IMG/VR virus record: IMGVR_UViG_2541047822_000003
Direction: 5' to 3' (one strand)
DNA length: 53,032 nucleotides
Source: a virus
Lineage: Duplodnaviria > Heunggongvirae > Uroviricota > Caudoviricetes
The translations under genes and the position numbers were made by a program. The stretch's first letter is position 1; the number at the start of each line of letters is the position of its first letter. This document shows, one piece after another, positions 10,853 to 14,197 of the stretch. Below the pieces are notes generated by a model. The model did no database searches and was not told where the DNA came from. It saw only the letters and a program-made list of their open reading frames with translations.

Positions 10853-12856
10853 ATGATTATGAGTGAAAATGATACAACCCCAAAGAAGTCTACAAGCCAG
10901 ATTAACAAAGCGGTATTCTTTACATCTGCTTTGCTAATTTTCCTTCTTGTCGCCTTTGCCGCCGTATTCCCGGATGTCGCCGACAAAAATTTTAAACTAC
11001 TTCAGCAACAAATCTTCACGAATGCCAGCTGGTTCTACATACTTGCTGTGGCCCTGATTTTACTGAGCGTCACGTTCCTTGGACTCTCACGTTACGGTGA
11101 TATAAAGCTGGGCCCAGACCATGCGCAGCCTGATTTCAGCTACCACTCCTGGTTCGCGATGCTTTTTTCGGCAGGGATGGGGATCGGCCTGATGTTCTTT
11201 GGCGTTGCCGAACCTGTGATGCATTATCTTTCGCCACCTGTCGGCACTCCAGAGACCGTTGCGGCAGCGAAGGAAGCCATGCGCCTGACGTTCTTCCACT
11301 GGGGTCTGCACGCATGGGCAATTTATGCCATCGTGGCGCTGATTCTGGCCTTTTTCAGTTACCGTCACGGTCTGCCTTTAACGCTGCGTTCTGCGCTCTA
11401 TCCCATTATCGGCGATCGCATTTACGGGCCTATAGGCCACGCGGTTGATATCTTCGCCGTGATAGGCACTGTCTTTGGCGTTGCAACATCGCTGGGTTAC
11501 GGTGTATTGCAGGTGAATGCCGGTTTGAACCATCTTTTCGGCGTGCCCATCAATGAAACGGTACAGGTCATTTTGATCGTGGTCATCACGGGGTTAGCGA
11601 CGATTTCGGTGGTGTCCGGCCTGGACAAGGGAATACGCATCCTGTCTGAGCTTAATCTGGGCCTGGCGGTGTTGCTCCTGGCGCTGGTCTTGTGCCTGGG
11701 TCCCACTGTGCTTCTGCTGAAGTCATTTGTGGAAAATACGGGTGGTTATCTGTCGGAACTGGTGAGTAAAACGTTCAACCTTTACGCGTATGAACCCAAG
11801 TCGAGCAACTGGCTGGGGGGCTGGACATTATTATACTGGGGATGGTGGCTTTCATGGTCGCCGTTTGTAGGTATGTTCATTGCACGCGTTTCCCGCGGCA
11901 GGACAATTCGTGAGTTCGTGACTGGCGTGTTGTTTGTTCCCGCCGGCTTTACGCTCATGTGGATGACGGTGTTTGGAAACAGCGCCATCTATCTCATCAT
12001 GAACCAGGGCGCCACTGACCTCGCCAATACCGTTCAGCAGGATGTTGCGCTTGCCCTGTTTAATTTCCTGGAGCATTTCCCGTTCTCTTCCGTGCTGTCA
12101 TTCATTGCAATGGCGATGGTCATCGTCTTCTTTGTAACGTCTGCTGATTCGGGGGCAATGGTTGTGGATACTCTGGCATCAGGTGGGGTGGCAAACACGC
12201 CCGTCTGGCAGCGAATTTTCTGGGCATCGCTCATGGGCGTTGTTGCTATTGCCCTGCTGATCGCAGGGGGGCTGAGTGCGTTGCAAACCGTAACGATAGC
12301 GAGTGCATTGCCCTTCTCAGTTATCTTATTAATATCCATATACGGACTGTTAAAAGCCCTGCGTCGGGATTTGACCAAGCGTGAAAGCCTTAGCATGGCG
12401 ACTATTGCTCCTACGGCTGCACGTAACCCAATTCCCTGGCAGAGAAGGTTACGCAATATCGCGTATTTGCCGAAGCGCTCTCTTGTGAAACGTTTTATGG
12501 ACGACATTATCCAACCCGCCATGACGCTGGTTCAGGAGGAACTTAACAAGCAGGGAACGATAAGCCACATCAGTGACGCCGCCGAGGATCGTATTCGCCT
12601 TGAAGTCGATTTGGGCAACGAGCTGAATTATATATATGAAGTGAGGCTTCGCGGGTATAACTCACCGACCTTCGCGCTCGCTGCGCTGGATAATGATGAG
12701 CAGCAGAGTGAACAACATCGATATTATCGCGCTGAAGTCTATCTCAAAGAGGGCGGCCAAAATTATGATGTAATGGGCTGGAATCAGGAACAGCTGATTA
12801 ATGACATACTGGACCAGTACGAAAAACACCTGCACTTCCTGCATCTGGTTCGTTAA
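10853..12856 (+). CDS. BCCT-family transporter, BetT-like (choline/betaine-type osmoprotectant uptake)
   Basis: 667-aa polytopic membrane protein with the BCCT signature [33 protein letters not shown] and a BetT-like C-terminus ([15 protein letters not shown]). Alternative start ATG 10859. Confidence 0.8.
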   Translation: [667 protein letters not shown]

Positions 12857-12863
12857 CAGCAAC

Positions 12864-12890
12864 ATGCCGCCACAGAGGCGGCATTTATTT
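12864..12890 (+). terminator. Rho-independent terminator-like hairpin after the BCCT gene
   Basis: ATGCCGCC-acaga-GGCGGCAT followed by TTATTT, 8 nt after the BCCT stop. Confidence 0.6.
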
Positions 12891-12919
12891 ATCCCGGCTG
12901 CAATATGAGGGAATGCAGA

Positions 12920-14197
12920 ATGATTTCACGCTGGAAATGGATGCTGAAGCAGACATTTAAAAAACTATGGTTCAGGGCAACGTTATTCGCAATTGTCGCA
13001 ATAATAACGGCCCTTTTATCAATTCTTTTTAAATCAATGATACCTGAGTCGGTTTCCGTGAAGGTTGGTGCGGAAGCAGTCGATAACATTCTGAACATAC
13101 TGGCATCGAGTATGCTGGCAGTGACCACATTTTCGCTGAGCATCATGGTCACAGCCTACGGTTCAGCCACTACTAATGTGACTCCCAGAGCTACTCGTTT
13201 AGTTGTTGAAGACGTCACCACACAAAATGTACTGGCCACCTTCATCGGTTCTTTTCTCTTCAGTCTGGTAGGGATTATTGCCCTCAATATGGGAGCTTAT
13301 GGAGAAAGGGGGAGAGTCATTTTATTCATTGTAACACTGGTTGTCATTGCCTTAATCCTCATCACATTGCTTCGCTGGATACAGCATTTGACCTCTCTGG
13401 GGAGGGTTGGTGAGACAACGGCAAAAGTAGAACAGGCGGCCATCGAAACATTTATTGCGAGAGCAAGAAATCCCTGTCTCGGCGGATATCCATGGCTTGA
13501 GAACAATGAACAGCCGAAAGGAACGGTTGCAGTTTATCCGAAAAAGATTGGCTATGTTGAATATGTTGATATGGTGAAACTCAGCAAGCTGCTGACCAAT
13601 GATCCCCGTCATGTATACCTCGTGGCGCAGCCGGGCAGTTTCATACATCCGTCCACGCCAGTTTTGTACCTGAGTCAGGGCCAGGAGTCATCAATCAGCA
13701 CCGATTTACTTGAGACGATTATTGTCTCGGATGTACGTTCATTTGCTCAGGACCCCCGATTTTGTCTTAGCGTCATGGCCGAAATAGCCTGCCGAGCCCT
13801 TTCCCCCGCAGTGAACGATCCTGGAACCGCCATTGATGTCATTGGCAGAGGTGTACGTATACTTTCCGCTTACGCGCAGAATAAATCTGATGAAATAGAA
13901 GTGAAATATCCTTCTGTACATGTTGCACCACTTCAGAATAACGATCTACTTGAAGACTTTTTCTCACCTGTTGCGCGCGATGGTGCCAGTATGAGGGAAA
14001 TTCAGATAAGGGTACTTAAAGGACTGTCGATGCTGAGTAAGGGTTGGCCTGGAATTTTTGCTGAAGCCGCACAAACCCTAGCATTTGAAACATTAGAGCA
14101 TGCTACTCGTGCTGACCATATAGATTCTGATAGATATCTAATAAAATCAATTTATTATAATTTATTTAGTGGCGAAGATTCTAATAAAAAACCATAG
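12920..14197 (+). CDS. Membrane protein, DUF2254-like (4 N-terminal TM helices plus soluble C-terminal domain)
   Basis: ORF 12905-14197; start preferred at ATG 12920 (GAGGGA 7 nt upstream). Four hydrophobic helices then a soluble domain; family call is from recall, not a search. Confidence 0.65.
   Translation: MISRWKWMLKQTFKKLWFRATLFAIVAIITALLSILFKSMIPESVSVKVGAEAVDNILNILASSMLAVTTFSLSIMVTAYGSATTNVTPRATRLVVEDVTTQNVLATFIGSFLFSLVGIIALNMGAYGERGRVILFIVTLVVIALILITLLRWIQHLTSLGRVGETTAKVEQAAIETFIARARNPCLGGYPWLENNEQPKGTVAVYPKKIGYVEYVDMVKLSKLLTNDPRHVYLVAQPGSFIHPSTPVLYLSQGQESSISTDLLETIIVSDVRSFAQDPRFCLSVMAEIACRALSPAVNDPGTAIDVIGRGVRILSAYAQNKSDEIEVKYPSVHVAPLQNNDLLEDFFSPVARDGASMREIQIRVLKGLSMLSKGWPGIFAEAAQTLAFETLEHATRADHIDSDRYLIKSIYYNLFSGEDSNKKP

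Follow-up and report, generated by a model that had tools for sequence, protein, structure and literature searches.

Among the described systems, Tn6062 stands closest to the locus presented here. Its BCCT gene, SPAP0106, was named betU and the cargo betU-SPAP0105 resides on IncHI1 PST6 plasmids (PMC3139670). S. Typhi carrying the two-gene fragment grew in 0.8 M NaCl (Holt 2011, PMC3139670); both genes had been cloned together, so the effect of BetU is not separated from that of DUF2254. Glycine betaine and proline betaine are the reported substrates of betU (PMC3139670). Choline is described as the specific substrate of BetT and betaine as that of BetU (PMC4411257). These functional reports concern the Tn6062 and HU734 alleles. 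For the BetT proteins, which are choline:H+ symporters, EcBetT D108 and PsBetT D210 have been proposed as proton sites, and autoinhibition is ascribed to a frataxin-like domain at the C-terminus (PMC11323884). BetP of Corynebacterium glutamicum (PDB 2WIT) is a Na+/glycine betaine symporter and its G153D variant is choline-specific. Cassettes bounded by stem-loops are also known: T4-type phages harbor PeSL (promoter-early stem-loop) cassettes (Arbiol et al. 2010, PMC2839356).

The window (the whole stretch of DNA that was analysed, 53,032 nucleotides) is a Rac-type prophage, and the RefSeq annotation of an identical genome places its integration site at ttcA. The unit of interest is very probably a mobile betU-DUF2254 module, forming the first cassette of a variable Rac-type cargo array, with BetU as a betaine/proline betaine importer. 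Both of its genes are intact and reproduce an osmoprotection module that has already been described; as cargo this is unremarkable, and greater interest attaches to the hairpin junctions on either side. The value of the finding is mostly corrective, as a mislabelled gene is recognized as BetU, a betaine importer with experimental osmotolerance support. The coordinates are collected in Table 1.

Table 1. Position of the betU-DUF2254 cassette, its junction hairpins and related features in the window.
Feature	Position	Strand	Evidence or remark
Junction hairpin A, left cassette boundary, GTCCGCTTTGTGCCAAGAGCAGAC	10587-10610	+	Backbone ends, cargo begins
betU upstream/leader region	10611-10858	+	No promoter in a simple sigma-70 scan
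betU, BCCT-family glycine betaine/proline betaine transporter, 665 aa	10859-12856	+	Pfam BCCT, Tn6062 identity, motifs
Bidirectional terminator-like hairpin, betU/DUF2254 intergenic	12864-12884	.	8 pairs, T-rich tail
DUF2254 membrane protein, 425 aa	12920-14197	+	Pfam DUF2254, Tn6062 identity, AF2 models
Junction hairpin B, right cassette boundary, GTCTGCTTTGTGCCATGAGCGGAC	14260-14283	+	Matches stop at 14285
Neighbouring cassette 2, 225-aa ORF	14557-15234	-	Weak PADLOC PDC-S64 match, 6e-7
Junction hairpin C, perfect 9-bp stem	15426-15449	+	-26.1 kcal/mol, z = -7.6
Neighbouring cassette 3, ~310-aa ORF	15583-16542	-	No family match
Junction hairpin D, inverted GAGCGA-type copy	16706-16729	-	End of the cargo array; conserved backbone flank follows
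trkG, Rac-borne K+ uptake subunit	23375-24832	+	Pfam TrkH, 5e-145; named trkG in an identical genome

The original prediction proposed a 667-aa BCCT open reading frame carrying the family signature. The signature stretch is indeed present, and the frame (10853-12856, + strand) results from an alternative ATG at 10853, the RefSeq start at 10859 giving 665 aa. The protein matches the Pfam BCCT model from end to end (PF02028, 661.7 bits, cut-off 27, E 7e-199, profile 1-485/485) and scores 542.6 bits against TIGR00842 (cut-off 407.55). Neither betU nor the DUF2254 gene contains a frameshift or a stop codon, so neither is a pseudogene by this check. betU is under very strong purifying selection: dN/dS lies at ~0.015-0.03, and synonymous sites are saturated in the comparison with the Leclercia and K. 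pasteurii copies.

At the protein level, 651/665 residues are identical between BetU of the window and BetU of Tn6062 (98%; 14 residues differ) and 418/425 between the two DUF2254 proteins (98%). The two-gene module shares 94.5% DNA identity with Tn6062, and betU dS is 0.33 between the Rac allele and the Tn6062/E24377A allele. Locus L005, an IS1-BCCT-DUF2254-IS1 arrangement on an S. Typhi IncHI plasmid, is Tn6062. Both published cloning primers match L005 at a distance of 3401 bp (3405 bp published), and primer IS1056-04 has no match in the window within 3 mismatches because the window has the other allele. Judged from its sequence, the transporter of the window is BetU, a betaine importer that already has a name. 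Through the Holt 2011 assignment, it presumably corresponds to the original HU734 betU as well. Like E. coli BetU (Ly et al. 2004) and that of Tn6062, the present gene is mobile and lies outside the core genome. Gene content, gene order and the inferred role in betaine uptake and osmotolerance are common to the window and Tn6062. The two differ in the allele and in the vehicle, which is IS1-flanked in Tn6062 (IS3-flanked elsewhere) and here a hairpin-bounded cassette in a Rac-type prophage.

BetU is a BCCT (LeuT-fold) secondary transporter and, by homology, a trimer. With ~665 aa, it can be aligned end to end with the BetT proteins of E. coli and P. syringae (8YBQ), sharing the 12-TM BCCT core, the TM8 tryptophan prism and a ~140-aa cytoplasmic C-terminal domain. 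The BetT-like C-terminal tail noticed earlier is borne out, since this domain (~515-667) aligns through its last residue with both K-12 BetT and the full-length P. syringae structure 8ybq. By analogy with BetT, it may mediate osmotic activation or autoinhibition. Overall similarity to BetP is much lower (330 bits, vs 646 to PsBetT), and the C-terminal osmosensor of BetP is short and helical, in place of the frataxin-like BetT domain.

The substrate site points in the other direction. In the unwound segment of TM3, BetU G108-M-G-I-G112 aligns with BetP G149-G153, to which it is identical, and contains no Asp; the corresponding motifs are G-I-G-I-D in EcBetT (K-12: AAGIGIDL) and G-I-S-I-T in PsBetT. 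The TM8 tryptophan box, YWGWWLSW, aligns with W371/W373/W374/W377 of BetP and W327/W328/W331 of PsBetT. BetU further shares the FFxTSADS segment and the substrate class with BetP. Both proposed proton-site residues of BetT are replaced, with Gly112 at the position of EcBetT D108 and Ser213 at that of PsBetT D210. The two replacements would favor betaine over choline and may imply an ion coupling unlike that at the proton sites of BetT. The substrate site is BetP-type, which fits the reported betaine specificity. BetU would then import glycine betaine and proline betaine at high external osmolality, and a lysogen would gain compatible solute in excess of the ProP and ProU supply.

The DUF2254 protein has 425 aa, or 430 aa from an upstream ATG at 12905, and matches PF10011 over nearly the whole profile (310.6 bits, cut-off 28.8, E 1.6e-92, positions 3-366/368). 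AF2 modelling shows four long N-terminal TM helices followed by a ~260-aa soluble domain at pLDDT 93.7, in agreement with the four-TM membrane protein that had been proposed. The DUF2254 gene is under purifying selection (dN/dS ~0.10-0.15) and its linkage to betU is ancient, synonymous sites being saturated here too against the Leclercia and K. pasteurii copies. Inherited together with betU, it is retained as a four-TM protein whose helical-repeat domain is predicted to be cytoplasmic. A role as universal BCCT partner was rejected, as a BCCT neighbour is missing in 7/9 sampled relatives, all seven sharing 50-70% identity. As a candidate anti-phage defence component, considered for its position in a prophage hotspot, the protein gave no PADLOC match at E <= 0.01. 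The terminator-like hairpin expected between the two genes is present; 6/8 of its pairs are G-C, its tail reads TTATTTAT, and it folds at -17.1 kcal/mol (z = -3.3).

The betU-DUF2254 module is found in 1966/5426 complete E. coli genomes (36%) and in ~1530 plasmids. The exact Rac junction of the window occurs in only 315 genomes of the same survey. The cassette is present in 0/50,697 free phage genome records; in IMG/VR prophage contigs that carry it, the 3673-bp hairpin spacing recurs (L034, L062, L078, L091). At least six independent contexts show an unchanged gene order and a spacing of ~63 bp: Rac, an IS3 island, the IS1 element Tn6062, Klebsiella IncF plasmids, a Leclercia chromosome and a K. 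pasteurii chromosome. The pair travels in at least four kinds of vehicle: Rac-type prophages, IS3 islands, Klebsiella plasmids (more than 1200 of them), and the IS1 element Tn6062 of MDR plasmids from typhoid strains. This widespread pair is routinely mislabelled, RefSeq naming the transporter "choline BCCT transporter BetT" and PHROGs filing both genes as unknown function.

These data bear on the earlier picture of an unusual repertoire with two osmotic systems. BetU and trkG are both there, the latter as a clear TrkH-family member of the same prophage, whereas nothing supports the DUF2254 protein as a transporter or osmolyte system of its own. The repertoire is not unusual, because the module is common and betU and trkG were already paired in a 2004 survey. 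Ly et al. 2004 (J Bacteriol 186:296) is said to have surveyed the two genes jointly, with both in its title. Reportedly, betU was flanked there by putative insertion sequences and trkG alone was Rac-borne. Both accessory osmoregulatory genes of that survey are present together in some Rac prophages.

The constancy of the pair raises the question of whether BetU and the DUF2254 protein form an obligate two-component system, the latter being a membrane-anchored regulator or accessory subunit needed for osmotic control. The same order and spacing in at least six contexts, the old adjacency (pS saturated for both genes) and the purifying selection on DUF2254 are in line with this. Furthermore, the osmotolerance experiment used both genes jointly (PMC3139670), and the K/R-rich N-terminus, read by the positive-inside rule, would place the soluble domain in the cytoplasm, on the side of the BetU C-terminal domain. 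However, we regard such a system as unlikely. In ~590 E. coli genomes betU is intact and DUF2254 is truncated by IS911, the seven relatives mentioned above stand apart from any BCCT gene, and a terminator-like hairpin separates the two genes. At the protein level, DUF2254 also diverges ~7x faster than BetU, unlike the tight co-evolution that an obligate partner should show. The 2004 BetU work reportedly assigned betaine uptake to betU alone, which likewise counts against an obligate pair. DUF2254 is probably dispensable for BetU transport. The puzzle is that it has remained beside betU over saturating synonymous divergence, yet can be dispensed with in hundreds of genomes. As one example of how an obligate pair could operate, DUF2254 might engage the cytoplasmic C-terminal domain of BetU.

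The name betT in many records would instead make the gene a second choline transporter, feeding the chromosomal BetA/BetB choline-to-betaine pathway. BetU does pass the NCBIfam subfamily model "choline BCCT transporter BetT" (752 bits, cut-off 695), remains below the cut-off of the betaine_BCCT equivalog (593 bits, cut-off 650), and shares the BetT architecture over its full length, C-terminal domain included. Nevertheless, identity to K-12 BetT is only 42%, and the Asp of G-I-G-I-D is replaced by the BetP-type Gly, at the very position where G153D makes BetP choline-specific. The literature, moreover, describes BetU as betaine specific (PMC4411257), with glycine betaine and proline betaine as substrates (PMC3139670). 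A choline role is therefore very improbable, a novel BetT-like choline system has to be given up, and the RefSeq label is probably wrong on substrate. More improbable still is a silent or non-functional cassette, an idle passenger in a prophage that is decaying. Rac-type prophages are often defective and relatives of the window have pseudogenised tail and coat genes; in addition, a simple sigma-70 scan of the region upstream of betU found no promoter-like site, with totals not above those of shuffles. Yet both reading frames are intact, betU evolves at a dN/dS of ~0.02, and IS elements and plasmids have picked up the module time and again, so that it is now widespread. The 98%-identical copy is functional (PMC3139670), which also upholds the reading of the unit as osmoadaptation cargo. 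Tn6062 keeps just ~70 bp of the betU upstream region.

The betaine-import module is delimited by the junction hairpin, a 24-nt element with the consensus GTCYGCT-N2-GNGCNA-N2-AGCRGAC. Four matches occur in the window, vs 0.01 expected by chance. Copies A and B do bracket the unit as had been proposed, and there are two further copies, one of them inverted. The proposal of a separately acquired cassette is equally well founded, as matches in other replicons and phages start and stop inside hairpins A and B. Phage Tritos has sequence in common with the window up to the loop of hairpin A and then diverges, whereas plasmid pPO125 shares sequence from the first base of this hairpin. Many genomes match the window at 99.9%, but only up to 14285. 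Beyond hairpin B the cargo varies among Rac variants; in 13KWH46, other cargo begins after the loop of this hairpin. The flank following the closing hairpin D is conserved in both 13KWH46 and Tritos. Rac-type phages have a variable array of cargo, and the hairpins are the precise points at which this cargo is exchanged.

How this exchange proceeds is a more speculative matter. The betU-DUF2254 pair may be one cassette of an integron- or PeSL-like array, with the 24-nt hairpin as a dedicated exchange site in Rac-type phages; we offer this as a tentative idea that is rather doubtful at present. The hairpin consists of 9-bp inverted arms around a G-N-G-C-N-A centre. In such a scheme, exchange would take place at a fixed point, the 3′ edge of this centre, and would be site- or structure-specific rather than diffuse homologous recombination. 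The likeness to PeSL cassettes concerns the flanking hairpins only: in both cases short conserved stem-loops surround non-essential cargo in a hyperplastic region and lie where phages that are nearly identical elsewhere exchange sequence. In contrast to the T4-type PeSL, the hairpin described here belongs to the Rac-type (lambdoid) group and, by scan and fold, has no attached promoter or T-tract terminator. The attC sites of integrons resemble the junction hairpin only in the logic of a crossover close to its 3′ edge. In sequence, the junction hairpin is unlike the R and L boxes of attC and contains no GTTRRRY core, and the prophage annotation lists no integron integrase. An Rfam search with the hairpins and the betU leader returned no match at E <= 1.

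If a dedicated exchange site were confirmed, phages would be able to trade cassettes as discrete units, whether these carry transporters, metabolic genes or candidate defence genes. The "linker" sequences postulated by the modular theory of phage evolution would then take a concrete molecular form. As a separate candidate, hairpins A and B were considered as attL and attR, that is, as reciprocal hybrids of two perfect hairpins. This was rejected, as the variable arm positions are independent over 142 hairpin instances: C-G is found in 76, T-G in 40, C-A in 21 and T-A in 5, with ~8 T-A expected.

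The window contains a Rac-type prophage whose integration site adjoins ttcA. Its gene order is intR, xisR, ralR, recT, recE, kilR, sieB, replication genes, the betU region, nin-like genes, lysis genes, trkG and tail genes. Across the queried stretch it is 100% identical to E. coli EC21Z-048. In that strain an IS3-family insertion of ~1.33 kb (L001 31619-32847) lies 5′ of the lysis genes and is absent from the window (~22000-23300), which accounts for the 1329-bp offset of trkG between the two. The original prediction had described a BetT-like BCCT transporter with a DUF2254 protein between junction elements and, together with trkG, an unusual osmotic repertoire. 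The sequence elements so described are all present in the window, and the family and architecture calls are correct.

Features of the betU region and trkG in the window
Feature	Position (strand)	Length or structure	Remarks
betU ORF	10853-12856	667 aa	RefSeq start 10859, giving 665 aa; Pfam BCCT, whole profile, E 7e-199
betU/DUF2254 intergenic hairpin	12864-12884	8-bp stem	G+C-rich, T-rich tail
DUF2254 ORF	12905-14197	430 aa	RefSeq start 12920, giving 425 aa; DUF2254 match, E 1.6e-92
trkG	23375-24832
Junction hairpin A	10587-10610 (+)	24 nt
Junction hairpin B	14260-14283 (+)	24 nt
Junction hairpin C	15426-15449 (+)	24 nt
Junction hairpin D	16706-16729 (-)	24 nt	inverted
Post-betU cassettes	14284-16705	225-aa and ~310-aa ORFs	225-aa ORF: weak PADLOC PDC-S64/DUF3644 matches

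When plasmids were searched for the cassette, Tn6062 was recovered as an IS1-BCCT-DUF2254-IS1 arrangement on an S. Typhi plasmid; both published primers match this transposon with a spacing of 3401 bp. The window proteins are identical to those of Tn6062 at 651/665 (BetU) and 418/425 (DUF2254) positions and the window therefore carries a betU allele with its usual neighbour. Tn6062 is an IS1 composite transposon of the IncHI1 PST6 plasmids of S. Typhi with 'two putative transporters', SPAP0105 and SPAP0106 (betU), as cargo, and a cloned 3405-bp fragment with both CDSs allowed S. Typhi to grow in LB with 0.8 M NaCl (Holt et al., PMC3139670). BetU is a betaine-specific BCCT member of E. coli, whereas BetT is choline-specific (J. 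Wood review, PMC4411257). As judged from its sequence, the window cargo is this mobile osmoprotection module of betU and DUF2254, which is already known and is here intact, strongly constrained and carried by a Rac-type prophage. The BetT-like reading had overlooked this identity, with betaine and not choline as substrate, and also that no transport role has been demonstrated for DUF2254. A Shine-Dalgarno-like GAGGGA motif precedes the DUF2254 ATG at 12920.

BetU shares 42% identity with K-12 BetT over its full length, and its best solved relative is full-length Pseudomonas syringae BetT (8YBQ; 646 bits, aligned 7-667). BetU is thus built on the BetT chassis, with a cytoplasmic C-terminal domain after the BCCT core; in the P. 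syringae protein this domain is frataxin-like, domain-swapped within the trimer and autoinhibitory (PMC11323884). The unwound TM3 motif G108-M-G-I-G112 aligns exactly with G149-M-G-I-G153 of BetP, the Na+/glycine betaine symporter of Corynebacterium glutamicum. In contrast, this motif is G-I-G-I-D in E. coli BetT, where D108 is the proposed proton site, and G-I-S-I-T in the P. syringae protein, whose proposed proton site is D210 on TM5 (PMC11323884); BetU has Ser213 at the latter position. BetP G153D is a choline-specific variant employed for structures. Both SAGMGIGL and the Trp box YWGWWLSW are kept in 7/7 BetU alleles examined. We infer that a betaine site of the BetP kind and a regulatory domain of the BetT kind are combined in BetU, which explains its reported betaine specificity. 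With such a site, 'choline BCCT transporter BetT', as RefSeq often names the protein, is probably a substrate misannotation; the name follows from NCBIfam scores, as BetU passes the BetT subfamily model (752, cut-off 695) and misses the betaine_BCCT equivalog (593, cut-off 650).

Of 5426 complete E. coli genomes, 1966 carry the module interior (coverage of at least 80% in 1379), as one of two alleles. The first, with 99% identity to the window or more, accounts for ~408 records and the second, at ~94%, for ~1550. The latter allele sits in IS3-flanked islands, for example in E24377A beside capU, virK and lpxM; another of its islands lies near fec and nanXY. The exact DUF977-hairpin-betU Rac junction is found in only 315 of the 5426 genomes. 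Furthermore, ~1530 plasmids carry the module (Klebsiella, 1266; mostly IncF, with IS1 or IS3 flanks), and Leclercia adecarboxylata and Klebsiella pasteurii have it on the chromosome. None of 50,697 deposited phage genome records contains it; IMG/VR prophage contigs do. K-12 Rac kept trkG and lost the whole betU region, so that ydaW abuts the rzpR remnant. Given this abundance, the repertoire is common rather than unusual. The literature already pairs betU and trkG as accessory osmoregulatory genes. The abstract of the 2004 BetU paper reportedly mentions putative IS flanking betU, the location of trkG in Rac and an incidence of about one third of isolates.

Could DUF2254 be an obligate partner of BetU? 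In neighbourhood sampling, DUF2254 has a BCCT gene on its 5′ side in the Enterobacteriaceae module, in Leclercia (72% identity) and in K. pasteurii (65%), and in none of the other seven relatives sampled (two in Pantoea, and one each in Serratia, Alloalcanivorax, Paraburkholderia, Cellvibrio and Mesorhizobium), whose neighbours are unrelated. Across module copies BetU is 95-98% identical everywhere and DUF2254 falls to the 72% and 65% of these two. Synonymous sites of both genes are saturated (pS 0.71-0.81), with omega of ~0.015-0.03 for betU and ~0.10-0.15 for DUF2254. The two genes have therefore long been adjacent, and DUF2254 is being maintained. However, IS911 truncates DUF2254 in ~590 genomes where betU is intact, which makes such a partnership unlikely. 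In this common E. coli variant near fec/nanXY, exemplified by strain D3 (L142 7067-7405), the cut falls after ~113 codons. These truncations are a natural experiment on the need for DUF2254.

The module is also internally mosaic, since dS between the Rac allele (window 10859-14197) and the Tn6062/E24377A allele (L005, L138) is 0.33 for betU and 0.08-0.09 for DUF2254. This pattern would imply recombination or gene conversion between the histories of the two genes. In Leclercia (L015 7529-10001) and Serratia (L008 7594-10063), DUF2254 lies beside a ~698-aa PQQ-repeat dehydrogenase-like gene and a 121-aa ORF; in these two genera this may be a conserved synteny that hints at the ancestral chromosomal home of the module.

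The finding is real but ordinary, and openings for novelty lie at the hairpin junctions, not in the cargo. The four copies (0.01 expected by chance; consensus GTCYGCT-NN-GNGCNA-NN-AGCRGAC) split the 10.6-16.7 kb region into three cargo cassettes. Plasmid matches span 10586-14289, with one end in hairpin A and the other in hairpin B. Phage Tritos matches the window on the DUF977 side as far as the hairpin A loop and has different cargo beyond. Strain 13KWH46 shares the Rac backbone and the betU cassette; past the hairpin B loop (L143 9885-12926), a cassette of LysR, gamma-glutamylcyclotransferase and MFS genes replaces the two ORFs of the window, and the array ends with an inverted hairpin and the same backbone flank. 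These boundaries bear out the predicted cassette nature, and the cassettes downstream of betU vary among otherwise identical Rac prophages. IS-flanked and chromosomal module copies have no hairpins, which therefore belong to the phage array and not to betU. No family match was obtained for the ~310-aa ORF.

In a pattern scan, more than 120 IMG/VR contigs proved to carry the element, at mosaic breakpoints. In 119 unique instances, a few conserved left flanks are joined to many unrelated right flanks, and the converse is also seen. Among these contigs, which are related to each other and in which several 'invariant' positions are fixed by the search pattern itself, linkage to the left flank is seen for hairpin positions 4, 8, 9, 11 and 14 (0/1000 shuffles reach the observed value) and not for positions 16, 17 and 21 (265-588/1000), which show weak linkage to the right flank (20 instances only). 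This pattern puts the exchange point at the 3′ border of the G-N-G-C-N-A hexamer in the hairpin centre. By an analogy proposed with the PeSLs of T4, Rac-type phages may use the hairpin as a site of cassette exchange. Exchange may be site-specific or may proceed by simple short-homology recombination; Rac encodes RecET. No Rfam family matches the hairpin and it lacks a T-tract. A derivation of hairpins A and B from two perfect sites, as reciprocal attL/attR hybrids, was also considered and did not survive a population test.

Directly 5′ of hairpin C, GCTCTTC heptamers form a short tandem array (15360-15408). A 358-aa replication-organiser-like ORF (8979-10055), just 5′ of the DUF977 gene, contains iteron-like GTCACG-rich direct repeats (9113-9151 and 9373-9421), which are probably the prophage replication origin.
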